From: Candidatus Latescibacterota bacterium
GTDB lineage: Bacteria > Latescibacterota > UBA2968 > GCA-2709665
Assembly (NCBI GenBank): GCA_965248435.1
Contig: OZ252100.1
Location: 3,616,001-3,680,000 of the forward strand
Direction of reading: 5' to 3'
Length of the DNA stretch: 64,000 nt
The notes under the pieces were generated by a model. That model saw only the letters and a program-made list of their open reading frames with translations, was not told the DNA's origin and searched no databases. Shown here in pieces: positions 1-63,977 of the stretch; position 1 is the first letter of the stretch; the number at the start of each line of letters is the position of its first letter. Position numbers and translations under genes: made by a program.

Positions 1-1820
1 TGATCCACTTCATGCCGCCTACGGCGCTGCTGCCGCTGGTGACGTGGATCGGGATCAACCTGTTTCTGAGGACAGCGCTTCCCCGCTATGCGCTGTCACG
101 CACAGAGGTACTGACGATCTTCGGGATCGTCTGGCTCCCGGCCACGATGCCGGGGGGTGTGTCGAGTTATCTGTTGAGTGCCGTCGCCGGTCCTGCCGAG
201 TACTCGTCTCCGGAGAACCGGTTCTGGGATGTCGGCTGGCCCCATCTGCCTCAGTGGATGTTTTTGAAACCGTCGGAGTATGTCGTCGGGGGATTCTGGT
301 CCGGGCTCCCAGAGGGAGACGCGATCCCCTGGGGCCCGTGGATCCCGGTCCTCTTCTGGTGGTTCATGGCCGCGCTGGGGATGGGGCTGACCGGATTCTT
401 CGCCAGCACGCTCTTTTACAAGCAGTGGCTCGAGAACGAGCGACTCATCTTCCCGCTGTCGAGATTCCCGAGCGATCTCCTGGCGCAATCGGAGAACGGT
501 CGCGTGCCCGACGTGATGAAGAACTGGGTCTTCTGGATCGGGTTCGCGTCTACATCGGGCATCCTCTTCTGGAATATCGCTGGCTACTTCGTCCTGCATA
601 TGCCCAGGATCATGCTTTTCGAAACATTGGGCACGCACGTCGTCCACATCGGCCGCGGATTTCCCCCCTACCACCTCAGGGTGCACCCATTGCTCATGGG
701 CCTGGCCTACCACTGCCCCCTGAACCTCCTGTTCACGTTCTGGATCCTCTACCCCCTGGATATCCTGAAACAAGGGATCATGAACCGGGTCGGGTTCTCC
801 GTCGGGCTTGAAGGTCAGCCTGCCACGCCCAGCCACATTTCCACCCTGGAGGCCAACGGTGCCCTCTTCTTCCTCGTGGGCTGGTCGATCTGGATCGCCC
901 GACACCATTTGAAAGAGACCTACCGGAAGGCCTTTTCTTCCCCTCGGCAAGCGGACGACGGGGCACCGGTCTCCTACCGGGCGGCCTGGCTGGGGCTCGG
1001 CTGTTCCGGCATCTTCATGCTTGGCCTCTTCGTGTCGATCGGGTTCAGCCTCCCGCTGGCGATTTTTCACGCGTTGATAACGGGGGCGGCCTACTTCGGC
1101 GTGACCAAATACTCGGCCGCGACCGGTTTCGTGTTTTTGAGGCCGCCGTCCGCCAAGGGTCACGCGGTGGTCAACTGGTTGTGGGGGACGGGCAACATGA
1201 CACCGGGAGACCTGTCGGGGATGGCGATCCTGAACAACCAGGGGTTCGCCGGCGGGGGCACGGCACGGATGCTCTCGATTCCGGCCACGCCGCACTTTTT
1301 CCGCCTCCTGGGAGATGCCCTGCGTCGAAACCCGCTCATCTGGGGCGCGCTTCCCGCAGCACTGCTGGTCGCCTTTGTCGCGACCATGGGCGCCAGCATT
1401 CAAATGAGCTACGTGGAAGGGCGACTGAATTTGAGCTCGGGCCCTACCGGTTGGGGCAAGTTTCTGGGGATGGTCCCTGTTCTGGAAGGGGCGTCGGTCA
1501 CGCGCTTCGACTACCAGAAGTGGCTGGTCTGGATCTTCGGCGGGGCCGAGGCGGGATTTTTGACGTTTATGATGTCGCGATTTTCGGGCTGGCCGATCCA
1601 CCCGCTTGGGATCGCCTTCCCCCAGTTCTACGGATTCAGCGTCTTTCTGGTCTGGCTGCCCAAGTTTCTGATCGTCCGCTACGGCGGCGTGACTCTTTTC
1701 CGGCGCTCCCTGCCGTTCTGGTATGGTTTCCTGGTCGGGTACCTCGTCGGCGTCGGCGCCTCGACCGTCGTCGACATGATCTGGTTTCCGACCTCCATGC
1801 ATTGGGTGCATGGATGGTAA
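1..1820 (+). CDS. DUF6785/DUF6784-family polytopic membrane protein (OPT-like putative transporter), probably 5'-partial
   Basis: Many TM segments, with QWLENERLIFPL and C-terminal WPIHPLG motifs shared with the paralogs at 13626 and 29131. The frame is open from base 3 and lacks the N-terminal helix the paralogs have, so the true start is probably upstream of the window. Confidence 0.8.
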   Translation, partial: IHFMPPTALLPLVTWIGINLFLRTALPRYALSRTEVLTIFGIVWLPATMPGGVSSYLLSAVAGPAEYSSPENRFWDVGWPHLPQWMFLKPSEYVVGGFWSGLPEGDAIPWGPWIPVLFWWFMAALGMGLTGFFASTLFYKQWLENERLIFPLSRFPSDLLAQSENGRVPDVMKNWVFWIGFASTSGILFWNIAGYFVLHMPRIMLFETLGTHVVHIGRGFPPYHLRVHPLLMGLAYHCPLNLLFTFWILYPLDILKQGIMNRVGFSVGLEGQPATPSHISTLEANGALFFLVGWSIWIARHHLKETYRKAFSSPRQADDGAPVSYRAAWLGLGCSGIFMLGLFVSIGFSLPLAIFHALITGAAYFGVTKYSAATGFVFLRPPSAKGHAVVNWLWGTGNMTPGDLSGMAILNNQGFAGGGTARMLSIPATPHFFRLLGDALRRNPLIWGALPAALLVAFVATMGASIQMSYVEGRLNLSSGPTGWGKFLGMVPVLEGASVTRFDYQKWLVWIFGGAEAGFLTFMMSRFSGWPIHPLGIAFPQFYGFSVFLVWLPKFLIVRYGGVTLFRRSLPFWYGFLVGYLVGVGASTVVDMIWFPTSMHWVHGW

Positions 1821-1836
1821 TGTAACGCTAGGCAAT

Positions 1837-2078
1837 TGCGGAATGCCCGATTGGGGATTGCGGAATGAAAAACAAATCTCACCGCGGAGACGCAGAGGAC
1901 GCGGAGAAGACTGGGTACCGGGAAACCAAAACACGGGTACCGGGTACCGTAAAACCGTGGATCGTCGTTCGTGGTTCGTGTAGAGACGCCCCGCCGGGGC
2001 GTCTCTACGGCTAACGGGGGATTGAGGGGGATTTCCCGATGATAACTGGATTAGCTTTACGCGATACGAAACGCGATA
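1837..2078. repeat. Composite intergenic repeat cluster
   Basis: Contains TGCGGAA-type heptamers, CACCGCGGAGACGCAGAG, a GGGTACC element (1913-1950), the palindrome GTAGAGACGCCCCG-C-CGGGGCGTCTCTAC (1980-2008) and a GGGGATTGAGGGGGATTT half-element. Confidence 0.8.
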
Positions 2079-2100: not shown

Positions 2101-3372
2101 ATGAAGCTCACAGCGGAACAGGAAGAAGCGCTGAAAGGCCGGTCCGGTCCGGTCCTGGCCAGATACATGAAATGGTTTGTCGATTGGGGCCACGCCATGG
2201 GGGCGGAGAGGCTGGTTCCGGTCACGAACGTTCACTGCATCCTACGTACCCCGCTCCTGAAAGGGATGTCGGAAGACACACTGGATGTCTACATCGAGGA
2301 GTTTCGAGCGCTCTGCAAGCACAAGGTGAAATGCAAGACCCTGACGCACGCGAAGACGCAATGCAGGACTTCGGCCCCTTCAGGATTGACGCAGATCACG
2401 TCCGAGGATGAAATAGGAATCAGCCAGAAGGAGCTCGATTTTCAAGAAGAGCTCAACCGGATCGCTCAAGAGGCAGGAATTTCGACGACGTGGTCCTGCA
2501 CGCCCTATCTCGTGGGCAGCGTCCCCGAATTCGGAGAGATCTGTGCGTGGACGGAGTCTTCCGCGGTGGTCTTCGCCAACTCGATCCTCGGGGCGAGGAC
2601 AACCCGCCACGGGATGGAAAGCTCGCTGGCGGCCGCGTTCCTGGGCTGGGTGCCGGAATTCGGCGTCCTGCTGGATGAGAATCGGAAGGCCTCGATCCAG
2701 GTGGATGTCGACGCCGACATGAGATCGAAGAGCGATTGGGGCGCGCTTGGATATTTTGCGGGCGAGATCGCAGGAACGGAGATCCCGGTTTTCGTCGGTG
2801 TGGATCGGATCGGTCCAGAAGAGGCGAAGCAGCTGTCGGCGACGCTGCCGTATTCGGGTCAGGGTACGACGATGTTTCATATCGCTGGCGTGACGCCCGA
2901 GGCGCCGTCTCTGGACAGCGTACTCGACCCGGATAGAGAGATCAGGCGCATTTCCTTCGGCGAGAATGAAAGGCGAGAAGCCTACGGGAAGATGACCACG
3001 TTGGGGAAGGGGGAGGCGGTCGACGCAGTGATTCTGGGCTGTCCCTTCAGCTCCTTGGAAGAGCTGGAAGAGATCTCCAACCATTTGCAGAAGGAGAAAG
3101 TCGCTCCAGGGGTGAGGTTTATCGTCTGTACCTCGCACGACACCCTGGATCTCGCTTCGAAGGCGGGTTACGCGGACGTTATCCATCAGGCAGGAGGAAC
3201 GTTGATGGTGGACAGCTGTCCCGGTGCGATGGGGAAGATGCGTCCACAGAATGTGGTCTCGAACTCCTTCAAGCAGGCCTTCTATGGACGCAGCGCCCTG
3301 GAGGCCAGGACGGGCGTGGCGGACCTTGGCGGCTGCATCGAAGCGGCGATCAAGGGAACCTGGATGGCATGA
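2101..3372 (+). CDS. Aconitase X catalytic (large) subunit, DUF521
   Basis: MKLT..EE N-terminus; WSCTPY, WTESSAVVFANSILGART, MFHIAGVTPEA, LGCP and DSC motifs; GAGAGG RBS. Confidence 0.9.
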   Translation: MKLTAEQEEALKGRSGPVLARYMKWFVDWGHAMGAERLVPVTNVHCILRTPLLKGMSEDTLDVYIEEFRALCKHKVKCKTLTHAKTQCRTSAPSGLTQITSEDEIGISQKELDFQEELNRIAQEAGISTTWSCTPYLVGSVPEFGEICAWTESSAVVFANSILGARTTRHGMESSLAAAFLGWVPEFGVLLDENRKASIQVDVDADMRSKSDWGALGYFAGEIAGTEIPVFVGVDRIGPEEAKQLSATLPYSGQGTTMFHIAGVTPEAPSLDSVLDPDREIRRISFGENERREAYGKMTTLGKGEAVDAVILGCPFSSLEELEEISNHLQKEKVAPGVRFIVCTSHDTLDLASKAGYADVIHQAGGTLMVDSCPGAMGKMRPQNVVSNSFKQAFYGRSALEARTGVADLGGCIEAAIKGTWMA

Positions 3373-3782
3373 AAAAACAGAAGATTCGAGGGAGGAAGGT
3401 GATCGGAGGCAAGGCCTCGGGTGAGGCGGCCGTGAGCGAGACCGCGCTCTGCTTCAGGTCGGAGTTCAACCCGATCGAAGGGCGCGTGATCGATTCGAAT
3501 CACCCCATGTACGACAGGATCCTTACCGGCAAGGTCGTGGTTATGCCGTCGACGAAGGGGTCGTCCGGAAACACGATGTTTATGAGAATCGCCTCTCTCG
3601 AGGGCAAGGCGCCTTCCGCCCTGATCCACAAAGAGATCGATTCGCCCCTCGTGCTCGCGTGCGCGATCGCGAACATTCCCCTGGTGCAGATCGACGAGAA
3701 GGCGTTTGGCTCGATACAGGATGGAGATTGGGTTGAGGTGGATGCGGATAGGGGAATTATTGAGGTGTCGAGGAAAGAGTAG
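3369..3782 (+). CDS. Aconitase X swivel (small) subunit, DUF126
   Basis: GKASGEA, GKVVVMPSTKGSS, GKAPSALI and IQDGDWVEVDADRG motifs; ATGA overlap with the large subunit. Confidence 0.9.
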   Translation: MKKQKIRGRKVIGGKASGEAAVSETALCFRSEFNPIEGRVIDSNHPMYDRILTGKVVVMPSTKGSSGNTMFMRIASLEGKAPSALIHKEIDSPLVLACAIANIPLVQIDEKAFGSIQDGDWVEVDADRGIIEVSRKE

Positions 3783-3992: not shown

Positions 3993-4883
3993 ATGGCAAG
4001 CAGTACAAAACGTGAACCGCTGAGGTTCCTGGTTGTGGTCGCCCACCCTCACGATTTCACCCACTGCGCCGGGACGTCCGGGATTCACATCAAGATGGGC
4101 GACTCCGTTACCGTGGTCACGATGACGGACGGCGGCATGAAGCACAACGAGCGCTACATGGACGAGCTCATGAAACCGGAAGCGGAGCGGGACCCGGAGG
4201 TGATGAGCCAGACGCCGAAGGACTACGCCGCGCAGAAGGAGAAGGAACTCCGGGGAGTGTGTGAAATCTTCGGGGTGACCGACCTTCGGATCCTGACCTT
4301 CCCGGAACCGTTCCGACGCTCCCGGTCACCTGAGGCCCTGGAGGTGCTCGAAGATATCATCCGGGATGTGCGGCCGCACGTGATGATCACTCACGCGCCG
4401 TTCAACTTTTCGCCGGTCGGGATTTCGCGGAACAGCATGGGTGTCGCGATCCTGAACGACCACCGGGAGACGGCGATCACGGCGCTGGAGGCCAGGGTGA
4501 GGCCGTCGTCGACGCCGGATTATGAGAACAAGAGACAGGCGCACAAGATCGCGGCCACTTATTTCCTGGGCGTGGACGTGATGCCGAACGAGATCGACTT
4601 CTACGTGGATATCTCGAGGTGGGGAGAAGAGCGGATGCAGGCGGAGGGCCTGTTCGCGAGTCAGGGTCAGGACGACACGTTCGCGCGGCTGCGGATAGAG
4701 AAACAGGTGGGGAACGCGGGCTGGTGTGCCAAGACTCAGTACGCGGAGGGGTTCGTTCGGGAACAGATCGAGACGCTTTCCTGTATCACGGTTTCTGAGT
4801 GGGACATGCTCCGGGCGACCGGTTCAAACATGGACATGATGAGGCATCGGGCAGGGGAGATCATGCTGACGCCTGAAATCTAA
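3993..4883 (+). CDS. PIG-L/LmbE-family metalloenzyme with atypical motifs (copy 1)
   Basis: LVVVAHPHDF, VTMTDG, IIRDVRPHVMITH, NDH, YVDIS and YAEGF motifs; GGAGG RBS. Confidence 0.85.
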   Translation: MASSTKREPLRFLVVVAHPHDFTHCAGTSGIHIKMGDSVTVVTMTDGGMKHNERYMDELMKPEAERDPEVMSQTPKDYAAQKEKELRGVCEIFGVTDLRILTFPEPFRRSRSPEALEVLEDIIRDVRPHVMITHAPFNFSPVGISRNSMGVAILNDHRETAITALEARVRPSSTPDYENKRQAHKIAATYFLGVDVMPNEIDFYVDISRWGEERMQAEGLFASQGQDDTFARLRIEKQVGNAGWCAKTQYAEGFVREQIETLSCITVSEWDMLRATGSNMDMMRHRAGEIMLTPEI

Positions 4884-5086: not shown

Positions 5087-5977
5087 ATGGCAGGCAATTC
5101 AAAACGGGAACCGCTGAGTTTCCTCGTCGTCATCGCTCACCCGCACGATTTTACCCACTGCGCCGGGACGTGCGGCATTCACATTAATAAGGGCGACTCG
5201 GTCACGGTGGTTACGATGACGGACGGCGCGCGGAAGCACAACGAGCGTTTCATGGACGAATTGATGAAGCCGGAGGCGGAGCGCGATCCTGAGGTGATGA
5301 GCCAGACGCCGGATCAGTATGCCGAGAAGAAGGCGAACGAGATCCAGGGCGTCTGCGCCATCTTCGGCGTGACAGACCTGCGAATCCTGACCTTCCCGGA
5401 GCCGTTCCGCAATTCGCGCTCGCCCGAGGCGGTGGAGGCGCTGGAGGACATCATCCGGGACGTGCGTCCGCACGTGATGATCACACACGCACCGTTCAAT
5501 TTTTCGCCCGTGGGGATTTCGCGGAACAGCATGGGATGCGCGATCCTGAACGATCACAGGGAGACGGCGATCGCGGCCCTGGAAGCCAGGGTGAGACCGG
5601 CGTCGACGCCGGATTATGAGAACCAGAAGCAGGCGCACAAGATCGCGGCCACCTACTACCTGGGCGTGGACGTGATGCACAATCAGGTGGACTTTTATGT
5701 CGACATCTCGCGATGGAAGGAGCAGCGGATGGAGGCGGAGGCCATGTTCGACAGCCAGGGACAGTCCGTGGAGTTCGCCCACAAGCGAACCGAGAGGGGC
5801 GCGGGGGGAACGGGCTGGCACGCGAAGACGCAGTATGCGGAAGGGTTCGTCCGGTCCGAGGTCGAAACACTCCCCTGCATCACAGTGCCTGAATGGAGCA
5901 TGATGTACGCGACCCGACCCTCGATGGACCATATCCGGCACCTGGCGGGTGAGCTAATGCTGACTCCTGAAATTTGA
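5087..5977 (+). CDS. PIG-L/LmbE-family metalloenzyme with atypical motifs (copy 2, tandem paralog)
   Basis: Same length (296 aa) as 3993-4883 and highly similar to it; GGAGG RBS. Confidence 0.85.
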   Translation: MAGNSKREPLSFLVVIAHPHDFTHCAGTCGIHINKGDSVTVVTMTDGARKHNERFMDELMKPEAERDPEVMSQTPDQYAEKKANEIQGVCAIFGVTDLRILTFPEPFRNSRSPEAVEALEDIIRDVRPHVMITHAPFNFSPVGISRNSMGCAILNDHRETAIAALEARVRPASTPDYENQKQAHKIAATYYLGVDVMHNQVDFYVDISRWKEQRMEAEAMFDSQGQSVEFAHKRTERGAGGTGWHAKTQYAEGFVRSEVETLPCITVPEWSMMYATRPSMDHIRHLAGELMLTPEI

Positions 5978-6344: not shown

Positions 6345-6637
6345 TATAGATCAGTATTTGGATAATGGCCATTTTTATGGGGGGTGTTATGAAAGAACGC
6401 CCGATCGTTTTGTACTACAAATTTATTTTTGGCCGCACAGCCCGGGGTGCAGATGTGCGGCATTTCTATGTCTGACATGAAAGGAGGGATGCCCGCGCGC
6501 GCGATTGCAAAAGATTCCGAACTTCAAACGCGGTGATTAAAACGTAATTTTTCAAGATAGGAGGCTAAGTGGCAAAGAGATCTAGATTTAAACGTTCGTT
6601 AGGTTTAGTTTCGCCGGGTAACAACCAAGGAGGAAGT

Positions 6638-9600: not shown

Positions 9601-9739
9601 CGACGAGTACAACCTGGTCTACGGTGCCTCACAGGTCAACAACGTCCACAACACCTACAGATACTTCGACCTCGTGGACAATGCCCTTGCCCTCGGCGAG
9701 CCGCGACTTCTCGTTCTCGGCGCCCGGTTGAGGTTCTAA
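6638..9739 (+). CDS. TonB-dependent receptor with N-terminal carboxypeptidase-regulatory-like domain
   Basis: Signal peptide; GKVTGSIQDENGNPLPGANIVIEGT..GATSDADGSF; TonB-box-like EMVVTAQR; plug motif GGMDAEYG; YVQDKMEF, SPRIGISHP, EIKNLFD; C-terminal LGARLRF. The ATG at 6638 has an AGGAGG RBS; an in-frame GTG at 6569 also has one. Confidence 0.92.
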   Translation: MKSFNIIVSIILVGALFAFVPTDVLASTYGKVTGSIQDENGNPLPGANIVIEGTQRGATSDADGSFLVIGVPPGEHQVTASMVGYGTSALQKVLVQSDFTTTISFSLTEAALEAAEMVVTAQRPPVEVDRTSSRYVIDIFEIENVPLARSAEDLIELEPGVSLDGALRIRGRSNDSQTAEIDGVRLIWTDGETSMGGRGSVMLTGGINKSALQEVSILTGGMDAEYGHSSSRVSFVTQDGGSAFSGMGEYRLTPPGKKHWGRDVYESGLMKKKLTDVTGSASFPSGLSPTDYTGEIGHYFEGSAGGPISDQAGFFGSVAHSREATIFPEASLTEPFNIKGSGNVTFRPTGDLKVKVGGMYSKDKIWRGERRAMTTSGGIWGAYAPNNVLNLFLPADYSAMGQQEEKNALYYAVATHSLNPKTFWEFRAAYSTRLIENTETKVSSTSRPIDEYGFTLPYDYNNSDDTDRTRWIFKGDITSQMHKNHLVKAGFEHVRYSVLESRLDFNVASPNVAMVLVGFDDPAIGMKPGKPNQYAAYVQDKMEFEGLVINAGVRIDAFQAGDVFEPGAANWMHYQTITRHRNVPLIDHGTMWSVSPRIGISHPISERATVRFFTGRFRQLPSFHGFWYHAWVGSDPISLDLNNDGSISQQTELYNRMTLKHNGFGPSPGIREGREQTMEVGADWNFAGDYVGSLTMFYADKNGTGSTYYMPPEKLNPVGFRGENMKAQSNNPGFDSRRGFELSFKKMFSQMTSFSVAWNVQWVAQFSSFKFSYMHPGANYVNSDRWFLGVDINSDGSETPHVPSAAERAEYAAIAQADLNNSLALVGAAAEENGFWLPVVEDGVEGNYIDQRQGVRISSFLEGTDRRNYGSAQFLFSAPTDFHITALQGFRATLLYRIQQGTSFPYTPIGSPPKQVSGPPSTVTDVNFERDFSFGQGGTITGFLEIKNLFDQRDNVIFGGSGFEFSYMAYGLQTRPPDDPDFLAYGNIDEYNLVYGASQVNNVHNTYRYFDLVDNALALGEPRLLVLGARLRF

Positions 9740-9828
9740 TCGAATGCGGATTGTGGATCGGGGATTGCGGATCGGAAATGCCATCCAATATCCCCGATTC
9801 CAGATCTTAACAGAAGGAGTGCTTTACG

Positions 9829-12294: not shown

Positions 12295-12337
12295 GCAGTA
12301 GCTGCTCGTTCCACGCCTTTCAAAAAGGATATCGACC

Positions 12338-13336: not shown

Positions 13337-13362
13337 TCCAGCCCACCGCTGTAAGATGTTGG

Positions 13363-13402
13363 CAACCGCCCGGAACCTTAGGTTTCGGGCGGTTATTTTT
13401 TT
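13363..13402 (+). terminator. Rho-independent terminator of the TBDR-CTD-PorV operon
   Basis: AACCGCCCGGAACC-TTA-GGTTTCGGGCGGTT hairpin followed by ATTTTTTT. Confidence 0.85.
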
Positions 13403-13414
13403 ATCTTGGAGAAC

Positions 13415-15689: not shown

Positions 15690-15796
15690 AGGATCGGGTA
15701 CCGGGAATGCAAAACACGGGTACCGTAGCATGTTGTATCGCACCGTGGCAGACGATTGATATGTATCTCGACAGAAGACGGAGCAATAATCAATAT

Positions 15797-47976: not shown

Positions 47977-48003
47977 TGCATAGCGGGTTTTAGGAGAGGT
48001 CAA

Positions 48004-49320: not shown

Positions 49321-49374
49321 GATGATCTACCGTTATTCCAAAGTCGTTGCTGAGCGTACACGACGAGGGATTAC

Positions 49375-50703: not shown

Positions 50704-50797
50704 GTGTATCTCGTATTTCGTATCTCGCGGCTCTTCACTTCTCATATACGATAGTTGATTTCAAACTCTACTATTAACGAAAGAAGGAGAAGGTCAC

Positions 50798-52078: not shown

Positions 52079-52186
52079 ACGCGTATCTCGTATCTCGAGG
52101 CGTCACGCTTCGCTCACTGGATAGCTGATTCTCATTAGATAGCTGATTTCAGAGTTTCTACATTGCCTCAACCCTGAAGGAATGAG

Positions 52187-53485: not shown

Positions 53486-53521
53486 ACGTAGGGTAAAAGG
53501 CAGGAAAGGAATGGACGTCCG

Positions 53522-55510: not shown

Positions 55511-55541
55511 GGGGCCCGGAATTTAGAACAGGAGCGCGGAT

Positions 55542-57497
55542 TTGAATCTGAAAGAGACCCAGAAATCGATCGAGGTTCTGGTCAAATACGAGAAAAAGAT
55601 CGGGCACAAAGGACCGGCCAGCGCCGATCTCCAGGCGGCGGTTGGCGATGGTGGAAGGGATGGGGTCTGGCGGCGCTATCTGTTGAACGGGTCGCATCTT
55701 GCCGACGTGGCGGGCTGGGTTGTGTTGCGTTCTGAAGATGGCGTGGCAACGCCATCCCTGGCCCTCACGGAAATTCGAAGGCTGGTCGAATCCGCCCACA
55801 AAAGTCCTCCCCGGTCCGCAGACGGGTTTCTCGGAAAATATCTGAATGAGCGGTCGAGTTTGCCGGCCTCTTTCAGGGAGAGACTCGACCGCCTCGCGAA
55901 GAAGGGCGAGAGGGAGATCCCGCTCTGTGCCGCGGGATTCGCTCGTGAGCTTGCGCGCCTCGGAAGGATCGGTGCCGAAGGTGCTGAGGCAGAGGTCCAT
56001 GCCCATTGGTATGCAGAGATTCTGGAGGGGCGTGTCCGGCTTCCAGAGGCACGAAGGGTCCCTGCGAAGATCACCAAGGCGGCGAAGCGCCTTACGGATC
56101 ATCTTCGATCCGTAGAGAGGGACAAAAGGATCGGGGAACGCACGGCATATGAGAGGTACGCGGGCGTCCTCAAGTCTCACGAGATGACCGATGTGACGGA
56201 CATCCTGATTCGGATGCACGGATCGAGGCCGGTGCTGGGCGTCGTCCAGATCGAGCCGTTCCTGAAACACTATTCAAAGGCGGAGACGCTGAATCGGCTG
56301 AGGCGGCTCATCGAGTGGTTTTCAGGGATCAACACGTGGAACAACGAAGGGGTTTCGCTCACCCCTAGGCTGATGGTATATCTCTCCCAAAAGAACGACT
56401 TCGAGTCCCTGCTTAAGCGAATGGATTTTCTGAGGGCGGCCCGGGATAGCGGGAAGTTTCACATCGACGATCCGCTCGCACGCGAGCTGGAGTTCCTGCG
56501 GTTCTCGGTCTACAACCGATTTACGCGTCATCCCAAGACGGATGAAGAGCTATATGAAATGTTCCAGGACCTCAAGCCGCTCCCTCCTCAGAAGGAGGTG
56601 CCGATTCGTCTCGACATGGATGAGATGCGCCAGGTGAAACGGACGGCTTATGAAGCATTCCTGTTTCTGGAGTTTTTGAAGGCGTTCAAGGCCCGCACGG
56701 AACGACACGTCGTGGTGATTGGAAACGATCGATACGGGCGACAGTGGGTGGTGGAGCCGATCGCGGAGCAACTCAAGGATGGGTTTTCCCTTCGTTACGA
56801 TCGCGTAGAATCGGGTCACGCATACCGTTTGAAGACGCCTCCGGTCTTTCCTGAGACGTTCGTGAGAGAGCTGAGCGACGGGATGCCTCACGTGGTGATC
56901 GTAGACGGCGCGAAGCCATTTCGGAAGCTGGAGAGAAAGATGCGGTTCTCGCGCTCGATGCGGGCCTACGCCAACTGGTTCTCGGTGTTCAACGACCTGC
57001 GTTCGGAAGGTGACGTGTCGAGTTTCGAAGCGGAGAGCGGCCTTCCGCCCTATCACGTGCGGGAACTGAAGCGGTGGCACGAGTTCACACGACTCCGTCG
57101 GCAGATGCGGGACTGGGTCACACCTGGAGAGACCTACAGCGTGAGAGTCTGGGCGCCGGAGTGGTACAGGCAGGTTCAACTCGGAGATGTTGAAATCGAG
57201 TACCAGCCGATCGACACGAAGGAAGACCGGCCGATGGTGGTGATGGCGAACTCGAACGTGTCAGGGGAGGATTGGAAGGGATTTCCGGCCGAGCTTCGGG
57301 GGACCCGGACCTATTATTTCGACGGCCCGGAGGACCTGGTGAAGGAGGAACTGGTGTTCGGGTTCGGCGATTACGGGGTGGAGACGCGCACTGTGGGACC
57401 GACGACGGTGGCGTTTATCGCCGAAGTCCGGAAGCAGATCGCGGCCGAGGTCGGTCGGCTGGTCGCAAGTGGGTGCGCACCGAAGGTCAGGATCTAG
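55542..57497 (+). CDS. Hypothetical protein (651 aa)
   Basis: Long ORF, TTG start after an AGGAG RBS, co-directional with its neighbours; no family recognised. Confidence 0.7.
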   Translation: MNLKETQKSIEVLVKYEKKIGHKGPASADLQAAVGDGGRDGVWRRYLLNGSHLADVAGWVVLRSEDGVATPSLALTEIRRLVESAHKSPPRSADGFLGKYLNERSSLPASFRERLDRLAKKGEREIPLCAAGFARELARLGRIGAEGAEAEVHAHWYAEILEGRVRLPEARRVPAKITKAAKRLTDHLRSVERDKRIGERTAYERYAGVLKSHEMTDVTDILIRMHGSRPVLGVVQIEPFLKHYSKAETLNRLRRLIEWFSGINTWNNEGVSLTPRLMVYLSQKNDFESLLKRMDFLRAARDSGKFHIDDPLARELEFLRFSVYNRFTRHPKTDEELYEMFQDLKPLPPQKEVPIRLDMDEMRQVKRTAYEAFLFLEFLKAFKARTERHVVVIGNDRYGRQWVVEPIAEQLKDGFSLRYDRVESGHAYRLKTPPVFPETFVRELSDGMPHVVIVDGAKPFRKLERKMRFSRSMRAYANWFSVFNDLRSEGDVSSFEAESGLPPYHVRELKRWHEFTRLRRQMRDWVTPGETYSVRVWAPEWYRQVQLGDVEIEYQPIDTKEDRPMVVMANSNVSGEDWKGFPAELRGTRTYYFDGPEDLVKEELVFGFGDYGVETRTVGPTTVAFIAEVRKQIAAEVGRLVASGCAPKVRI

Positions 57498-57555
57498 ACA
57501 TACGTATCTCGTATCTCGGGGCTTTTCGCTTTCACTCAAACTTGACGGGGATGAG

Positions 57556-58839
57556 ATGAGCAACGTACCGATGACGCGCCCGGAAGAGGCGCTCGCGATG
57601 CACGACATCACGCATCACTACGCGTGCGGCTATGTCGAACGGGCCGATGGCAGCATTCTCAAGATCTCTGGCACGAAGTTCACGACTTCAGACGACGGGG
57701 GAATCACCTGGTCGGACTACTATGAGTGTCACGATCCTGATGGCGAGCTGGTGCAGGGCCGATCTCTGGCGAGGTTGGAGGGGAACGCGATCGGGATCTC
57801 CAACGTAGTTAGCTCATCGGATTCGGATGTGTATAACTACATGTCATTCAGGCGCTCGGAAGACGGAGGCAAGACGTGGGGCCTCCCGCTTCGCGTTTCA
57901 CCGGAAGAGTTTTCCGTAGATGACTATCACGACACGATGATTCGGACCTCCTCGGGGCGTTTGATTATGCCGGTCTACACTTCACTGGGGCAGCGATCTG
58001 CCTCCAACGACATTCCAGGGCCCTGGCCGGGCAAGCTGGTGAAGGGGCAGTGGGTCTCGACGAACGCCCACTTCTTCGACATAGGGTTCTCCTGTTCATT
58101 CGTCTACTATTCAGATGACGACGGGGCGACCTGGCAGGCGAACAAGGACGGGAAGTTGCTGGTTAACCTGGACTACAGTGCCGTGTGCAGCTACTTGAAC
58201 GAGCCATCCGTCACTGAAGTAGAGCCGGGTACGCTTTTGCTGTTCCTGCGCTCCGGACTGGGTCGTCTGTTTCAGGCCTGGTCGTTTGACAATGGGGAGA
58301 CCTGGACGCGCCCCGAGCCGACGTCGCTTGCCACGTCGACGGCTCCGGGTCAGATCCGGACGCTGCCGAACGGACACCTGCTCGCGGTCTGGAACCAGCA
58401 GAGTCCGAAGGAGATCCGCCATGGCTATCACCGCTCACGGATCTCGACGGCAATCAGCCGGAACGGGGGGAGCGTGTGGGAGTTCTTCCAGAATGTGACG
58501 TCCCTCCACGAGGAGACGCGCGTGGAGCCGGGACCGATCGAGCCGGTCCGTCCCGAGGAGTATCATTACAACCCGGACATGCCTTCACCGGAACGTGAAG
58601 CGGAATATGTAACGCCGACGGATGAATATGGTGTGTGGACCTACCCGTCTGCGCTCGTGCTGAAGGACCGGGTGATCATTTCGCATCGCTACTACTACTA
58701 CAGCGAACACGAGACACGCGCGGAGCTGCTGAAGAACGGCGAACGCGATGGGTGGATTGAAAAGGTGAAGGTGCTGCCAATGTCCTGGCTCTATGGCGGC
58801 AAGGAGCCGGCTGATAGTCCACGCATCGCTGGGTCGTAA
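57556..58839 (+). CDS. Sialidase-fold (BNR/Asp-box) protein, paralog 5
   Basis: ATG at 57556 gives MSNVPMTRPEEALA; Asp boxes, NEPS and WTYPS. Confidence 0.82.
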   Translation: MSNVPMTRPEEALAMHDITHHYACGYVERADGSILKISGTKFTTSDDGGITWSDYYECHDPDGELVQGRSLARLEGNAIGISNVVSSSDSDVYNYMSFRRSEDGGKTWGLPLRVSPEEFSVDDYHDTMIRTSSGRLIMPVYTSLGQRSASNDIPGPWPGKLVKGQWVSTNAHFFDIGFSCSFVYYSDDDGATWQANKDGKLLVNLDYSAVCSYLNEPSVTEVEPGTLLLFLRSGLGRLFQAWSFDNGETWTRPEPTSLATSTAPGQIRTLPNGHLLAVWNQQSPKEIRHGYHRSRISTAISRNGGSVWEFFQNVTSLHEETRVEPGPIEPVRPEEYHYNPDMPSPEREAEYVTPTDEYGVWTYPSALVLKDRVIISHRYYYYSEHETRAELLKNGERDGWIEKVKVLPMSWLYGGKEPADSPRIAGS

Positions 58840-58887
58840 ACTCCAAGTCTGGATTAAATTCTAACGCTAAAACTCGAGAGGGATGAG

Positions 58888-60186
58888 ATGAGCAACGTAC
58901 CGATGACGCGCCCGGAAGAAGCGCTCGCGATGCACGACATCACGCATCACTACGCGTGCGGCTATGTCGAACGGGCCGATGGCAGCATTCTCAAGATCTC
59001 TGGCACGAAGTTCACGACTTCAGACGACGGGGGAATCACCTGGTCGGACTACTATGAGTGTCACGATCCTGATGGCGAGCTGGTGCAGGGCCGATCTCTG
59101 GCGAGGTTGGAGGGGAACGCGATCGGGATCTCCAACGTGGTTAGCGCACCGCAGGATCCGGATGTGTATAACTACATGTCATTCAGGCGCTCGGAAGACG
59201 GAGGCAAGACGTGGGGCCTTCCGCTTCGCGTTTCACCAGATGTCTATTCGGTCTCGGACTACCACGACACGATGATTCGCACTTCCTCGGGCCGTCTGAT
59301 CATGCCGGTCTACTGTGGGATGGGACAGCGGACGGCTCCGAACGATATCCCCGGACCGTGGGGCGGCAAGCTGGTGAAGGGGCAGTGGGTCTCGGTAGGT
59401 GCCCACATTTTTGACATGGGGTTCTACTGTTCGTTCGTCTACTATTCCGACGACGACGGGGCGACCTGGGAAAAGAGCAAGAACGAGGAACTGCTCGTCT
59501 ACCTCGACTACGGCACGGTCGTCAGCTACGCGAACGAGCCGTCCGTGACGGAGGTGGAACCGGGAACGCTGCTGATGTTCCTGCGCACCGGTGTCGGGCG
59601 TCTGTTTCAAGCCTGGTCGTATGACAACGGGGAGACCTGGACGCGTCCCGAACCGACGTCGCTTGCCACGTCGACGGCGCCAGGTCAGATCCGGACACTG
59701 CCGAACGGCCATCTGTTGGCGGTCTGGAATCAGCAGAGTCCAGAGGAGGTCCGGCGTGGCTACATTCGGTCGCGTATCTCAACGGCGATCAGCCGGAACG
59801 GAGGGAGCGTGTGGGAGTTCTTCCAGAATGTGACGTCGCTGCACGAGGAGACACGCGTGGAGCCGGGGCCGATCGAACCGGTTCGTCAGGAAGAGTACCA
59901 CTACAGGCCGGACATGCCGGCGCCTGAGCGTAGGGCGGAGTATGTGACACCTGCCGATGAATACGGGGTGTGGACCTATCCGTCCGTGCTGGTTCTGAAG
60001 GACCGGGTGATCATTTCGCATCGCTACTACCTCTATACCGAGCACGAAACGCGCGCGGAGCTGCTCAAGAATGGGGAGCGAAACGACTGGATCGAAAAGG
60101 TGAAGGTGCTTCCGTTGTCGTGGCTGTATGGCGGCAAGGATCCGGCAGACAATCCGAACAATAAGATTTCCTGGTCGGGATTCTAG
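58888..60186 (+). CDS. Sialidase-fold (BNR/Asp-box) protein, paralog 6
   Basis: Same motifs; the 5' part is nearly identical in DNA to paralog 5. Confidence 0.82.
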   Translation: MSNVPMTRPEEALAMHDITHHYACGYVERADGSILKISGTKFTTSDDGGITWSDYYECHDPDGELVQGRSLARLEGNAIGISNVVSAPQDPDVYNYMSFRRSEDGGKTWGLPLRVSPDVYSVSDYHDTMIRTSSGRLIMPVYCGMGQRTAPNDIPGPWGGKLVKGQWVSVGAHIFDMGFYCSFVYYSDDDGATWEKSKNEELLVYLDYGTVVSYANEPSVTEVEPGTLLMFLRTGVGRLFQAWSYDNGETWTRPEPTSLATSTAPGQIRTLPNGHLLAVWNQQSPEEVRRGYIRSRISTAISRNGGSVWEFFQNVTSLHEETRVEPGPIEPVRQEEYHYRPDMPAPERRAEYVTPADEYGVWTYPSVLVLKDRVIISHRYYLYTEHETRAELLKNGERNDWIEKVKVLPLSWLYGGKDPADNPNNKISWSGF

Positions 60187-60226
60187 GCTGATGCTTCGCA
60201 GGTTTATTTAACGTGAGAGGGTAAAA

Positions 60227-61525
60227 ATGAGCAACGTACCGATGACACGTCCTGAAGAGGCGCTCGCGATGCACGATATCTCGTATCACTTCGCGTGCGG
60301 CTACGTCGAACGTGCCGATGGCAGCGTTCTGAAGATCTCGGGCACGAAGTTCTCGACGTCGGACGACGGGGGGATCACCTGGTCGGAGCCCTATGAATGT
60401 AGAGATTCTAATGGAGAGCTGGTGCAGGGCCGGTCCTTGGCGAGGCTGGAGGGGAACGCGATTGGGATGACCAACTGCGATCAACTCCCATCGGAGGGAC
60501 AAGGAGCAAAAGTTTGTGAGACGTTCCGGCGATCTGAGGATGGGGGAAAGACGTGGGGGCTTCCGCTTCGCCTATCACCTGATTTCATTACGGTCGCAGA
60601 CTACCACGACACGATGATTCGGACCTCCTCGGGACGCCTGGTCGTACCGGTCTACTGCTCGCTAGGACAGGGGTCCGCCGCGAACGATATTCCCGGTCCC
60701 TGGCCGGGAAAGCTGGTAAGAGGGCAGTGGGTTTCCACGAACGCCCACTTTTTTGATATGGGGTTCTCCTGTTCGTTCGTCTACCTTTCAGACGATGACG
60801 GGGCGACCTGGCAGACGAACAAGGATGGGGAACTCCTCGTCTATCTCGACTACGGCACCGTCGTCAGCTACCTGAACGAGCCGTCCGTCACCGAAGTGGA
60901 GCCAGGAGTCCTTCTGATGTTCCTGCGCTCCGGTGTCGGACGTCTGTTTCAGGCCTGGTCGTTTGACAACGGAGATACGTGGACGCGCCCCGAGCCGACC
61001 TCTCTCGCGACGTCGACGGCCCCGGGTCAGATCCGGACGCTGCCGAACGGTCACCTGCTTGCGGTCTGGAACCAGCAGGGCCCAGACGAGATCCGGCGCG
61101 GCTATCACCGGTCTCGGATCTCGACCGCGATCAGCAGGAACGGGGGGAGCGTGTGGGAGTTCTTCCAGAATGTGACGTCGTTGCACGAAGAAACGCGCGT
61201 CGAGCCCGGCCCGATCGAGCCGGTGCGTCCAGAGGAGCATCATTACGATCCGGACATCCCTGCGCCGGAGCGCGAAGCGGAGTATGTGACCCCTACGGAC
61301 GAATATGGCGTGTGGACCTATCCCTCTGCTCTGGTGCTGAAGGACCGGGTGATCATTTCCCATCGCTATTACCTCTACAGCGAGCACGAGACCCGCGCGC
61401 AGCTGATCAAGACGAATCCAAACGAGGATTTTCACGGGTTTATCGAGAAGGTGAAAGTATTGCCGATGTCGTGGCTCTATGGCGGCAAAGAGCCGGCTGA
61501 CCATCCCCGCATCATGGGAAGCTAG
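60227..61525 (+). CDS. Sialidase-fold (BNR/Asp-box) protein, paralog 7
   Basis: Same start peptide, Asp boxes, NEPS and WTYPS as the other paralogs. Confidence 0.82.
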   Translation: MSNVPMTRPEEALAMHDISYHFACGYVERADGSVLKISGTKFSTSDDGGITWSEPYECRDSNGELVQGRSLARLEGNAIGMTNCDQLPSEGQGAKVCETFRRSEDGGKTWGLPLRLSPDFITVADYHDTMIRTSSGRLVVPVYCSLGQGSAANDIPGPWPGKLVRGQWVSTNAHFFDMGFSCSFVYLSDDDGATWQTNKDGELLVYLDYGTVVSYLNEPSVTEVEPGVLLMFLRSGVGRLFQAWSFDNGDTWTRPEPTSLATSTAPGQIRTLPNGHLLAVWNQQGPDEIRRGYHRSRISTAISRNGGSVWEFFQNVTSLHEETRVEPGPIEPVRPEEHHYDPDIPAPEREAEYVTPTDEYGVWTYPSALVLKDRVIISHRYYLYSEHETRAQLIKTNPNEDFHGFIEKVKVLPMSWLYGGKEPADHPRIMGS

Positions 61526-61536: not shown

Positions 61537-62478
61537 ATGACCGAAGTTCTCACCGAATCCATCAAAGATAAACGCGCCTGGACGGCGAAAACCGCCGACC
61601 CACAGGAAGCTTGGACCACAGTTCTGTCCGAAGCGTGTTTTGAGGAGCTGGTGAGAACCGCGCAGGGGGTGGAGGGACCGACGACGGAGATCCGCGTCCG
61701 ACAGGAGGACCTTTCCCTAAGTAGATCCGCTCTCGCTCCGGTCTCGGAGGCGATCGAATCAGGCCGGGGATTCGCGGTGATCGACAGGGTACCGCTGGAG
61801 AACCGCTCGACAGAGGAGGTCGTGCGGATCTACTGGCTGATCGGTCAGATCCTGGGGGACCCGTTCGACCAGGACATCAAGGGGACGCTGCTTTACGATG
61901 TGACGGACACCGGCCAAAACGTTGCAGAAGGGGCCCGGTTCTCCGTCACCAACGCGGAGAGCACCTTCCATACCGACGGGGCGTTCAACCCGCACGTGCC
62001 CGACATTGTCGGACTGCTGTGTCTTCAGACGGCCAAGTCGGGTGGCGAAAGCCAGCTCGTGAGCGCGGTTGCGGTTCACAACGCGCTGCTCGAAAATCAC
62101 AAGGAGGTTCTGGAGAGGCTGTATGACGTCTTCTGCTTCGACCGCAGGGGCCAGTTCCGCGAGGGGGAGGACCCGTTTACGGAGACGCCGATCTATCGCT
62201 GGGACGGGTCGGAGCTGATCCACCGTTACATGAATTTGTACGTTGAGGTGGGCCATCGGCTTGCTGAGAGACCGCTGACTGCGGATCGGGAGGCGGCGCT
62301 TGAGATGATGGAGAGATTGGTGCAGCGAGAGGACTTGAGGGTCGAGTTCAGCCTGGAGCGAGGGCAGATGCTCTTCACGAACAACCGATGGATTCTGCAC
62401 AACCGCACGGCCTTCGAGGATCATCCTGAGCCTGAGAAGCGGCGGTACTATGTCAGGCTGTGGCTGAGCAGGAAGTGA
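61537..62478 (+). CDS. TauD/TfdA-family Fe(II)/2OG dioxygenase
   Basis: GRGFAVI, FHTDG, VGLLCLQTAKSGGESQLVS, NNRWILHNRTAFED and RYYVRLWL motifs. Confidence 0.9.
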   Translation: MTEVLTESIKDKRAWTAKTADPQEAWTTVLSEACFEELVRTAQGVEGPTTEIRVRQEDLSLSRSALAPVSEAIESGRGFAVIDRVPLENRSTEEVVRIYWLIGQILGDPFDQDIKGTLLYDVTDTGQNVAEGARFSVTNAESTFHTDGAFNPHVPDIVGLLCLQTAKSGGESQLVSAVAVHNALLENHKEVLERLYDVFCFDRRGQFREGEDPFTETPIYRWDGSELIHRYMNLYVEVGHRLAERPLTADREAALEMMERLVQREDLRVEFSLERGQMLFTNNRWILHNRTAFEDHPEPEKRRYYVRLWLSRK

Positions 62479-62495
62479 AACCAGGGGAGAAACCG

Positions 62496-63977
62496 ATGTA
62501 CGACTATGAGAAGTATCCTCCGATCATCTATGCGGACGATTTCGCAGATCGCCAGAACATCAGCTGGCGGGTCGAGCCGGCCAGGAAGCACGAAACCAAT
62601 CCGCTGCTCGAGCCGAAATTTCCGTGGGACAGCGCCAGCCCCTGCGGCGGTCACGGAACGATCCTGAAAGACCCGATCGACGGTGTCTTCAAGGCGTGGG
62701 TCGTCGGCATCGAGGAAGATTTGTCTTACGATGGAAGCGGGCCGCTGGGCTACCGGCTCGTCCACCTTCGGTCCGAAGACGGGGTCGATTGGGAACGCCC
62801 GGAGCTGGACGTCTGTCCGGTCGAGGGCCACTCGAGGACAAACATCCTCCTGGATTACGACACCGGCGGACGGACGACCTACGCTTCGGTGTTCGTCGAT
62901 CCGGAGGCGAATCCGGATGAGCCATACGAGATGTTCTGCTTTCGCGACGCCGCCCTGAACTGCCCTGCCGGTCTCGTGGCCGGGTTCGGTCCGGACGCGG
63001 TACCGGGCCGCCAGTCGTATCGCTACCGTTCCGTGGACGGGATCCACTGGCGCCCGGACCAGGGCCCGGTTCCGATCTCGAGCGCGGATACGCTCTACGT
63101 TCACAAGGCGTCGGACGGGACGTACGTCTGCCATCACAAGTACTCGATCCCGATGTACCCGGGCGGCAGGGCCGCGTTCGATGTCGCCGGGAGCAAATGC
63201 CGGATCGGGTGGCAGGCAAGGAGTGAGGATGGCTACAACTGGTCGGAGTCGATCCCGATGATGGTCCCGGATTCGCTCGACGCGCAGGGTGACCAGATCA
63301 TGGAGGTGGGCCGCTATCCGTACAACGACGGTTACATCGGCCTGACGGCGATTTTCAACGGCATCCACCAGGAGATGCATCTTCAGCTTGCGGTTTCTCC
63401 TACCGGCCTTCCGATCAAGACCTACCCGCCCTACTCAGACAGCGGCTGGTGGCGGCCGTCCCGCCGCCCCGCGCTCGGATTGGAGCCGCTCGGCGATTAC
63501 GGCGGGGGACAGATCTGGCCCACGCGAACACTCGTCGAGGATGGGGACGAACTCGTGATTTTTTACGGCGCCCTGGAGGGTGTCCACGGAGACCTGTATT
63601 CGAGAGAGCCGGGCATGCTGCACTTCTATGGGGCCCTGTGCCGGGCCTCGTGGGAGAAGGGACGCATGTGGGCAGCAGTTCCGGCCTCGGGCGGACACAG
63701 AGAAGCGATGCTCGAGACGCAACCGATGGAGGACACTGAGGGAAAGAAGCTGATTGTGAACGCGGTCACTCGGCCCGACGGGTTCGTGATGGCAGAACTG
63801 GTAGACGCGCGCGGCGAAGTAATTCCAGGGTTCGGTCGGGATGATTGCCAGGGACTGAGCGGCGATCACAAGTGCGCGGTTCTCTCGTGGAAAGGCGGCG
63901 AGGCCTGCCCTTCGAGCGGTCACCAGCTACGCATCTTTCTGATGCGCGCGAGGCTTTACGGGTTCGCGTGGCAGTAG
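62496..63977 (+). CDS. Uncharacterised beta-propeller glycoside-hydrolase-like protein, paralog 4 (divergent)
   Basis: SWRVE..NPLLEPKFPWD, GTILKDPIDG, SEDGVDW, PLGDYGGG, GALCRASW and LYGFAW; ATG at 62496 follows GGGGAG. Confidence 0.7.
   Translation: MYDYEKYPPIIYADDFADRQNISWRVEPARKHETNPLLEPKFPWDSASPCGGHGTILKDPIDGVFKAWVVGIEEDLSYDGSGPLGYRLVHLRSEDGVDWERPELDVCPVEGHSRTNILLDYDTGGRTTYASVFVDPEANPDEPYEMFCFRDAALNCPAGLVAGFGPDAVPGRQSYRYRSVDGIHWRPDQGPVPISSADTLYVHKASDGTYVCHHKYSIPMYPGGRAAFDVAGSKCRIGWQARSEDGYNWSESIPMMVPDSLDAQGDQIMEVGRYPYNDGYIGLTAIFNGIHQEMHLQLAVSPTGLPIKTYPPYSDSGWWRPSRRPALGLEPLGDYGGGQIWPTRTLVEDGDELVIFYGALEGVHGDLYSREPGMLHFYGALCRASWEKGRMWAAVPASGGHREAMLETQPMEDTEGKKLIVNAVTRPDGFVMAELVDARGEVIPGFGRDDCQGLSGDHKCAVLSWKGGEACPSSGHQLRIFLMRARLYGFAWQ

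Follow-up and report, generated by a model that had tools for sequence, protein, structure and literature searches.

The stretch of DNA analysed here (the window: 64,000 bp, contig positions 3,616,001-3,680,000) belongs to the genome of an uncultured marine Candidatus Latescibacterota bacterium, which comprises 5.67 Mb in two contigs. According to a gene map based on the listing of open reading frames (ORFs), a codon-usage gene call over the whole contig, and Pfam and NCBIfam scans, it contains 41 genes (Table 1). Among them are a cassette of three outer-membrane genes (6569-13336), i.e., a putative TonB-dependent receptor, a secreted protein of 821 aa with a C-terminal domain (CTD) of the type IX secretion kind, and a PorV-like barrel; three membrane proteins with the domains DUF6785 and DUF6784 (hereafter DUF6785); a fusion of an M28 peptidase with FtsX (M28-FtsX); a weakly OPT-like protein of 829 aa; and a cluster of hydrolase-fold and redox enzymes. 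A first-pass annotation, made from the letters of the sequence, had named these parts and regarded the whole as one envelope-spanning uptake and degradation system. The outer-membrane parts were confirmed in place by profile and NCBIfam matches, the three DUF6785 proteins and M28-FtsX by Pfam, and the enzyme cluster, which it had put at around 31 kb, was recovered as 32.6 kb with 24 genes (31359-63977), 23 of them on the + strand.

The window is a slice of a catabolic island of around 420 kb (3,595-4,015 kb of the contig), which contains many uptake-and-degradation modules, and it comprises several adjacent modules, not one system. In an all-against-all comparison of the 4,301 called proteins, the 276 genes of the island proved to be nearly one-stranded and dominated by arrays of paralogues. 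Genome-wide, the families F520 (unannotated proteins of around 520 aa), GFO, GHL10-like, sulfatase, DUF6785, and BNR_2 count 50, 52, 29, 23, 22, and 20 members, respectively; Pfam scans of representatives add GH28-like, FG-GAP/rhamnogalacturonan-lyase-like, GH36, and DHDPS-like proteins, HpcH aldolases, and DUF6807. At least four helices are predicted in 21 of the 276 island proteins, namely in 17 DUF6785 proteins and one DUF6785 fragment, in M28-FtsX, in the OPT-like protein, and in one protein of 380 aa. Six DUF6785 genes stand in tandem at 3992-4005 kb of the contig.

Equally to the first-pass annotation, we found neither SusD nor ABC ATPase or MFS genes here: SusD_RagB (PF07980) gives no match at E <= 1 in the whole genome, none of the genome's 50 ABC_tran matches lies between 3,550,538 and 4,046,233 (i.e., at least around 65 kb are clear at either window end), and no MFS_1 match is situated between 2.78 and 4.68 Mb, that is, none within 0.8 Mb of the window. 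Solute-binding and TRAP proteins are absent from the Pfam matches of the window proteins, an absence judged on those scans only. Elsewhere in the genome, around 45 ABC ATPase domains and around 17 MFS genes exist.

Table 1. Features of the window, in window coordinates (kb values refer to the contig)
Feature	Position	Strand	Evidence and remarks
DUF6785/DUF6784 protein	12-1820 (5' end upstream of the window)	+	Pfam 2.5e-66, 4.1e-12; third of a tandem group at 3611-3617 kb
AcnX large subunit	2101-3372	+	Pfam AcnX 8.2e-107; forms a cis-3-hydroxy-L-proline dehydratase-like pair with the next gene
AcnX swivel subunit	3369-3782	+	Pfam AcnX_swivel 5.6e-20
PIG-L family de-N-acetylases, two paralogues	3993-4883, 5087-5977	+	78% identical; without signal peptide
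TonB-dependent receptor	6569-9739	+	N-terminal CarboxypepD_reg domain, signal peptide, Plug match just under the cut-off
CTD-bearing secreted protein, 821 aa	9829-12294	+	no Pfam family; divergent type IX secretion type-A CTD at around residues 730-821, by family profile
PorV/PorQ-family outer-membrane barrel	12338-13336	+	NF033709, 136.7 bits (cut-off 90)
DUF6785/DUF6784 protein, directly downstream of the cassette	13626-15689	+	Pfam 1.5e-90; position conserved in relatives
IS30-family insertion sequence	15797-16852 (transposase gene 15811-16794)	-	34 matching copies genome-wide, protein identity 98 to 100%
M28-FtsX fusion, 1521 aa	17064-21629	+	Peptidase_M28, MacB_PCD (periplasmic core), and FtsX domains (Pfam)
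PhyH-family Fe(II)/2-oxoglutarate dioxygenase	21772-22563	+	Pfam; not part of the duplicated copy of the block
OPT-like protein, 829 aa	22739-25228	+	weakly OPT-like; 13 predicted helices
IS481-family transposase gene	25464-26621	+	Pfam; single copy in the genome
Ankyrin-repeat protein, secreted	26830-27426	-	Pfam scan, N-terminal hydrophobicity
DUF3179 protein, lipoprotein-like N-terminus	27518-28774	-	Pfam scan, N-terminal hydrophobicity
DUF6785/DUF6784 protein, head of the enzyme cluster	29131-31128	+	Pfam 3.6e-114
Accessory enzymes	31359-42959	mixed	M81/MlrC-like peptidase (-), GFO, GGT, RraA-like aldolase/decarboxylase, xylose-isomerase-like TIM barrel, GFO, 301-aa gene, Amidohydro_2, two 2-hydroxyacid dehydrogenases
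F520, three paralogues of around 520 aa	43040-47879	+	unannotated family; without signal peptide
BNR_2 (sialidase-fold), seven paralogues	47956-61525	+	PF13088, E 4e-21 to 7.5e-25; without signal peptide
GH42-like protein, within the BNR_2 array	53522-55510	+	Pfam
651-aa protein without assignment, within the BNR_2 array	55542-57497	+	PDB profile search: nothing
TauD-family dioxygenase	61537-62478	+	Pfam
F520, fourth paralogue	62460-63977	+	unannotated family

The outer-membrane cassette and its recurrence

The receptor is divergent. As a single sequence it reaches 23.5 bits against the Pfam Plug cut-off of 23.9 and finds nothing in a PDB search; the profile of its family (13 sequences) recognises plug domains, among them those of FepA (E 8.3e-12) and a SusC homologue, 8aa4 (E 2.7e-9). 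Against the SusC/RagA model TIGR04056 it scores 55.5 bits (cut-off 368.25), with only the N-terminal 120 residues matching, and by this NCBIfam score it is classed outside the SusC/RagA family. TonB_C is present in the genome twice over its cut-off.

Concerning the 821-aa protein, the last 80 or so residues of its family (13 members), compared by hhalign to the 18 bona fide type IX CTDs of the genome, give a probability of 97.1% (E 6.6e-11), and by this family profile the protein is predicted to bear a type-A CTD. The genome encodes type IX machinery (SprA; SprA_N 91 bits) together with those 18 CTD proteins over the cut-off. The pair of CTD protein and barrel resembles known type IX cargo with cognate barrels (PorZ/PorQ, PorU/PorV, type-B cargo with PorP/SprF) in that the gene of a CTD protein adjoins that of a PorV-family barrel dedicated to it. 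Those known pairs work for the secretion machine itself or for gliding adhesins, whereas the pair of the window belongs to a fixed three-gene cassette with a TonB-dependent receptor, found in 5 to at least 13 copies per genome. A published review (PMC10202324) describes that the uncleaved CTD of PorZ is kept to bind the PorQ barrel, that genes of type-B cargo cluster with cognate PorP/SprF barrels thought to anchor the cargo, and that cognate PorV-like barrels are suggested to retain CTDs and to protect them from cleavage. By analogy, we propose the PorV-like barrel as the cognate anchor of the CTD protein, and the latter as a surface substrate-binding partner of the receptor: the type IX system would carry it out of the cell, and its private barrel would keep it on the surface beside the receptor, in the role that SusD or surface glycan-binding lipoproteins have in Bacteroidota.

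Compared to the SusC/SusD polysaccharide utilization loci (PULs) of Bacteroidota, the window shares a receptor with an N-terminal extension of the CarboxypepD_reg type, a surface partner encoded next to it, the clustering with degradative enzymes, and the many paralogous copies per genome. Despite this general similarity there are several differences: SusD is lacking in the genome, the gene following the receptor belongs to no Pfam family, the receptor stays far under the SusC/RagA cut-off, and, in place of a lipoprotein, a type IX CTD protein that has a PorV-like barrel of its own would serve as partner. Furthermore, the enzymes lack signal peptides, such that degradation would be cytoplasmic and not situated at the surface or in the periplasm. 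In the literature searched for PorV or type IX secretion in combination with TonB-dependent receptors and polysaccharide use, titles and abstracts contained no description of such a receptor/CTD protein/PorV-like barrel cassette.

The order of receptor, 821-aa family, and barrel recurs within the genome (tblastn of the window proteins), with five copies at 3035, 3622, 3766, 3891, and 3959 kb, and DUF6785 or F520 genes come after every one of them. The family of the PorV-like barrel is represented by 3 to at least 13 copies in most genomes of the order to which the window belongs, a few having only 1 or 2. For synteny, 20 of the listed barrel matches were sampled with 15 kb around each, in 13 other genomes, complete or nearly so, from five genera. 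All 20 loci show the order receptor, CTD protein, barrel; DUF6785 follows within 6 kb downstream in 15 of them, in 11 immediately. The outer-membrane cassette is a real, conserved unit. The first-pass annotation had named two outcomes that would speak against it, namely families without co-occurrence or synteny in other genomes and exported enzymes; neither was observed, the enzymes being judged by the crude scan described below. A genome labelled Gemmatimonadota, outside the 168 genomes of the phylum set (locus L010), likewise contains CTD protein and PorV-like barrel, then DUF6785. Upstream of the receptor, 17 of the 20 loci (within L122-L140) possess a secreted protein of around 235 aa, which matches OMP_b-brl weakly (22.2 bits, cut-off 28.7). 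The corresponding small barrel gene of the window's genome is situated at 3,608,582-3,609,376, 13 kb upstream of the receptor and outside the window.

The DUF6785 family and the M28-FtsX module

Both domains (PF20581 and PF20580) score over their cut-offs in the window proteins, and 33 of 33 aligned relatives match both. The 24 matches in the genome correspond to 22 full genes and one broken copy. Around 13 helices are predicted; the hydropathy profile averaged over 159 members exhibits 12 hydrophobic peaks, one of double length, and the residues conserved among these members include E90, R358, H360, D377, K614, and D651. The family is present in 154 of the 168 genomes of the phylum (in 0 of 13 in family f10), with 20-88 first-look candidates per genome in the window's class. 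Outside the phylum set, 20 to 29 matches were found in four genomes (two with Gemmatimonadota labels, the others labelled Zixibacteria and Handelsmanbacteria) and 6 in one labelled Planctomycetota; among 1.84 billion proteins, 7,657 cluster representatives match at E <= 1e-3. The literature searched contained no mention of DUF6785, DUF6784, or their Pfam accessions.

The neighbourhood of the family was surveyed at 80 loci found with the DUF6785 profile, neighbours being scored within 10 kb. These are mostly catabolic: GFO and enolase-superfamily dehydratases (21 loci each), sulfatases (19), UxuA (12), CN-hydrolases (11), creatininase-like proteins (10), and GGT (6), with heparinase II/III at some loci. 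Within this distance, 11 loci have the barrel, 8 the CTD protein, and 7 the receptor.

Concerning a possible relationship to the OPT/YSL family (PF03169), the OPT-like protein of the window has to be considered first. The label given to it in the first-pass annotation holds insofar as the genome's only OPT matches fall on this protein, at its C-terminal part, whereas the score remains below the Pfam cut-off (19.3 vs 25.8 bits, E 1e-3). Weak OPT matches are also found in 4 of 30 relatives (best E 6.2e-4), and one NCBI record names a relative 'OPT/YSL family transporter'. Among the 120 relatives listed, the identity amounts to 53 to 98%, and the named records belong to Latescibacteria/Latescibacterota, Gemmatimonadota/Gemmatimonadetes, and Handelsmanbacteria. 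DUF6785 (159 sequences) shares the N-terminal region of around 210 residues with this family (121 sequences): 209 columns align with an hhalign probability of 80.8% (E 1.3e-5), compared to 0.2% if either alignment is reversed, and the region contains a common ERL-x-FP motif. A shallow comparison of three DUF6785 sequences to the single OPT-like protein gave a probability of 3.7%, and a global alignment of the two families failed, the similarity being N-terminal only. Unlike true members of OPT/YSL, all proteins with an OPT match here score under the cut-off, neither family's profile finds a solved OPT structure (that of the 829-aa family finds no solved structure in PDB at all), and DUF6785 alone matches OPT in 0 of 33 members.

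As the best reading of DUF6785 we infer an importer, because of this N-terminal thread to OPT and because no other carrier is found in the 420 kb. Alternatively, the proteins could be membrane-embedded enzymes or exporters (glycosyltransferase, polymerase, flippase, efflux), with import running through transporters encoded elsewhere or limited to small substrates. It would suit such a role that the DUF6785 profiles show no PDB match, no other Pfam family, and no link to any transporter family, that one locus adjoins a MurG-like GT28 glycosyltransferase, and that the ABC ATPases and MFS genes mentioned above exist elsewhere in the genome; the first two of these points count against import. However, an uptake family diversified by substrate would show just this large number of candidates per genome, placed co-directionally among sulfatases, lyases, dehydratases, and oxidoreductases, the 420 kb offer no other candidate carrier, and the N-terminal OPT-like homology exceeds the reversed-sequence controls, such that we regard a non-importing DUF6785 as distinctly improbable and retain the importer.

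M28-FtsX resembles the permeases of the ADOP/MacB type in possessing a MacB periplasmic core and a C-terminal FtsX domain without an adjacent ATPase gene (for a cognate ABC ATPase, no ABC_tran match exists between 3,550,538 and 4,046,233), and orphan, duplicated permeases are typical of the ADOP family. It differs by its score against the ADOP model (28.3 bits, cut-off 622), by the N-terminal fusion to an M28 peptidase-like domain, and by its conserved place beside the OPT-like protein and DUF6785. M28-FtsX is found within 10 kb of DUF6785 in 16 of the 80 loci, under several phylum labels, and three contigs labelled Gemmatimonadota or unclassified show the order M28-FtsX, DUF6785, 829-aa protein. 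In the window's genome there are three pairs of M28-FtsX and 829-aa protein, and no DUF6785 or receptor gene is mapped in the neighbourhood of the pair at 5387-5393 kb. The two proteins form a separate module, conserved across phyla and often with its own DUF6785, which probably has a different function. That M28-FtsX is part of the same uptake system, as had been assumed initially, finds no support: this pair occurs without receptor cassette, and the block in the window is a segmental duplicate interrupted by IS30.

The presence of peptidases raises the question of whether peptides, glycopeptides, or amino-acid conjugates are the substrates instead of glycans: M28-FtsX would trim them in the periplasm, the OPT-like protein and DUF6785 would import them, and GGT, the M81/MlrC-like protein, AcnX, PIG-L, and the dioxygenases would process them. 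M28, M81/MlrC-like, GGT, AcnX, and PIG-L proteins are all encoded in the window, M28-FtsX recurs near DUF6785 as just described, GGT (6 of 80 loci) and class III aminotransferases flank DUF6785 in some loci, and a passage in Youssef et al. 2015 (PMC4454575) predicts the degradation of hydroxyproline-rich glycoproteins by Latescibacteria. The bulk of cluster and island, however, consists of glycoside-hydrolase-like, sulfatase, and sugar-acid enzymes, and the arrays at 43-64 kb are fitted less well by peptides than the other modules are. Peptide substrates for the whole therefore appear very unlikely to us; they are compatible with DUF6785-dependent glycan uptake if DUF6785 paralogues differ in substrate.

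The block at 13670-25229 duplicates 3,066,530-3,076,103 of the contig, with a DNA identity of 86.7% for DUF6785, 88.1% for M28-FtsX, and 99.5% for the 829-aa gene, the second copy of which is situated at 3073.6-3076.1 kb; PhyH is largely absent from that block copy. The uneven identity suggests a recent gene conversion or replacement of the OPT-like gene. IS30 has split the DUF6785 gene from that of M28-FtsX. Furthermore, the ankyrin and DUF3179 genes break up this region of the window. The first-pass annotation of the system had left these two genes unmentioned, as well as the two transposase genes, AcnX, and PIG-L. The DUF3179 lipoprotein-like protein recurs beside receptor or DUF6785 genes (around 3,764 kb of the contig; loci L054, L056, and L078) and may add another binding component to the uptake modules.

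Such rearrangements might also mean that there is no functional unit, but a mosaic of unrelated catabolic genes, membrane proteins, and mobile elements, brought together by duplication and insertion, in which a system is only an effect of gene density. Besides the duplicate (86.7 to 99.5% identical) and the two kinds of insertion sequence inside the window (IS30, with 34 matching copies in the genome, and IS481), the island with its 420 kb of paralogue arrays and the range of the window's enzyme families, from peptidases to dioxygenases with no single obvious pathway apparent, would be expected of a mosaic. Chance accumulation, however, does not explain a cassette order and a link to DUF6785 that are kept across five genera and in one genome outside the phylum set, and the orthologous locus of a genome of the same genus (L121) contains PIG-L, receptor, CTD protein, barrel, DUF6785, and M28-FtsX in the window's order without IS30. 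We consider the mosaic unlikely and prefer repeated, functional uptake-and-degradation modules.

Enzymes without signal-peptide-like N-termini

As the first-pass annotation had stated, the enzymes show no visible signal peptides: 24 of 24 lack a signal-peptide-like N-terminus in a crude hydrophobicity scan (highest 12-residue Kyte-Doolittle mean in the first 80 or so residues). In all enzymes but GGT the maxima stay below 1.5; that of GGT is 2.18, at residue 44 and thus within the mature fold. The five exported proteins of the window reach 2.0 to 3.1. The same scan gave no Tat-like motif with a hydrophobic stretch behind it in any of the 24, and a candidate Tat signal in F520 ('RRNVA' at residue 18) was rejected because it lacks such a stretch. 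In the whole island, 25 of the 276 proteins start with a signal-peptide-like sequence or an N-terminal helix according to the crude test, nearly all of them cassette or membrane proteins themselves, and therefore the sulfatases and glycosidase-like proteins of the island appear cytoplasmic within the limits of that test. None of the 23 sulfatase paralogues was flagged by it, and the representative (3730776-3732275, L082) begins directly at the motif of the catalytic domain. So many cytoplasmic sulfatases would be unusual.

Among the seven BNR_2 paralogues, identity ranges from 57 to 88%. The N-terminal stretch MSNVPMTRPEEALA is common to six of them, and the seventh (47956-49320) has it without the first M; in the genes 47956-49320 and 57469-58839 the conserved stretch lies inside the called frame, the true starts probably being internal. 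Their PDB matches to solved sialidases are weak (best E 6.7e-8, over the Asp-box region), and we file them as sialidase-fold proteins only, not as GH33 sialidases. F520 belongs to no Pfam family in any of the 120 relatives listed, among which are 'hypothetical proteins' of 42 to 49% identity from records of Acidobacteriota and Planctomycetes. A weak BNR_2 signal in 11 of 28 members and an N-terminal GH130 match (E 0.0044) lead us to suspect a beta-propeller-like fold, without assignment to a family.

The family names of the accessory genes (PIG-L, GFO, 2-hydroxyacid dehydrogenases, RraA-like, Amidohydro_2, AcnX, GGT, M81, TauD, PhyH) suggest, as a guess, glycans with amino sugars or uronic acids, or glycopeptides, as substrates. 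AcnX scores 198.5 bits against NF051439, under the cut-off of 700. The ATG of the 301-aa frame (38847-39752) shares one base with the stop codon of the GFO gene before it; this frame was missed by the gene caller and has no NCBIfam match. Four opposite-strand ORFs (96-1934, 12320-13498, 50774-52063, and 62448-63380) were rejected as genes, as they belong to no Pfam family and each overlaps a better-supported gene.

Proposed uptake and degradation route

Taken together, we consider it somewhat probable that the island is built of repeated uptake-and-degradation modules working without SusD, ABC ATPases, and MFS carriers. In the outer membrane, the TonB-dependent receptor would take up oligomers, aided by the type IX-exported surface protein. 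By analogy to PorZ with PorQ, the latter would be kept on the cell by its uncleaved CTD seated in the dedicated PorV/PorQ-like barrel, such that this pair would do the job of the SusD lipoprotein in Bacteroidota. In the inner membrane, the DUF6785 proteins with their conserved Glu, Lys, Asp, Arg, and His residues may carry oligomers or conjugates to the cytoplasm; genomic context and weak homology point to probably ion-coupled secondary transporters, distantly related to the OPT-like family. Within the cytoplasm, the paralogue arrays without signal peptides would degrade the imports from their ends, in the window by seven BNR_2, four F520, and a GH42-like protein, and elsewhere in the island by sulfatases and by GH28-like, GH36, and rhamnogalacturonan-lyase-like proteins. 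Oxidoreductases, aldolases, deacetylases, and dioxygenases would then pass the pieces into central metabolism. M28-FtsX and the OPT-like protein stand apart as a module that a segmental duplication brought to this place, where insertion sequences now lie on either side of it; peptides or glycopeptides may be its substrates.

Such a route resembles the SusD-less TonB-dependent carbohydrate utilization (CUT) loci of Proteobacteria, in which a TonB-dependent receptor, an inner-membrane carrier of a known family (e.g., MFS or a sodium symporter), and catabolic enzymes are combined in one locus. Whereas these components are the same in kind, the carrier would here be DUF6785, and type IX secretion components are not known from CUT loci.

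Several observations weigh against this reading. The barrel of the receptor is recognised by no model (Pfam and PDB searches), and the single 821-aa protein reaches only 16.9 to 21.2 bits with TIGR04183, below the cut-off of 23. One genus supplies 8 of the 13 genomes sampled, such that the loci do not count as independent, and in three of the five cassettes of the window's genome the next DUF6785 is 12 to 42 kb away. Genomes of family f4 contain 5 to 88 DUF6785 candidates each, at least 13 in all but one, yet only 1 to 4 PorV-family matches; the expansion of DUF6785 is independent of the cassette, which is therefore not an obligatory partner. ABC ATPase genes occur within 10 kb in 11 of the 80 DUF6785 loci, and the connection from DUF6785 to OPT is a chain of two weak steps. 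The signal-peptide scan took the first start codon of each open frame as the start, and non-classical export of the enzymes is still possible. In favour of the reading, a hint of expression comes from RNA libraries: in 4 runs of 2 studies, which bear the labels marine and sponge metagenome, contigs of 90 to 99% identity cover the three cassette genes, and two of them (X1 record 7 and X2 record 15) bridge the junction 12294/12338 between the genes of the CTD protein and the barrel, but such contigs show neither strand nor level nor a single transcript, and their depth cannot rank genes. The rest of the 20-kb stretch has trace depth only (<1 in any bin); at 13.3-26 kb (DUF6785, M28-FtsX, OPT-like gene) no RNA contig exceeds trace depth, which is not evidence of silence.

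The original conception of a PUL analogue thus stands in part: the conserved link of cassette and DUF6785, the catabolic neighbours, and the missing signal peptides agree with it, whereas the 64 kb are not one system and M28-FtsX and the OPT-like protein belong to a module of their own. Going further, one may combine two claims, namely that DUF6785/DUF6784 is an unrecognised superfamily of secondary transporters, remotely related to OPT and the main importer of oligosaccharides and conjugates not only in Latescibacterota but also in neighbouring lineages with the labels Gemmatimonadota, Zixibacteria, Handelsmanbacteria, and Planctomycetota, and that the cassette is a type IX-dependent replacement for SusC/SusD. 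The CTD-anchored secreted protein in its private barrel would then hand the substrate to the receptor, and the organisms would follow a strategy of 'swallow whole, digest inside' with cytoplasmic sulfatases and glycosidases. This joint claim we advance tentatively, as a possibility more doubtful than convincing.

As to its kind, we infer a TonB-dependent nutrient-uptake locus, the proposed new elements being the type IX-anchored partner of the receptor and DUF6785 as inner-membrane carrier. If the cassette works as proposed, a TonB-dependent receptor can obtain its surface partner through type IX secretion, which would constitute a new link between this secretion route and glycan uptake. New exo-acting activities in glycan degradation may be sought in F520 with its 50 paralogues and in the sulfatases that lack signal peptides. 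DUF6785, a family without characterised function, gains a testable role; should it be an importer, annotation pipelines overlook the main route of carbon uptake in these phyla, and metabolic reconstructions, e.g., the model of monomer uptake found in passages of Youssef et al. 2015 (PMC4454575), would need revision.

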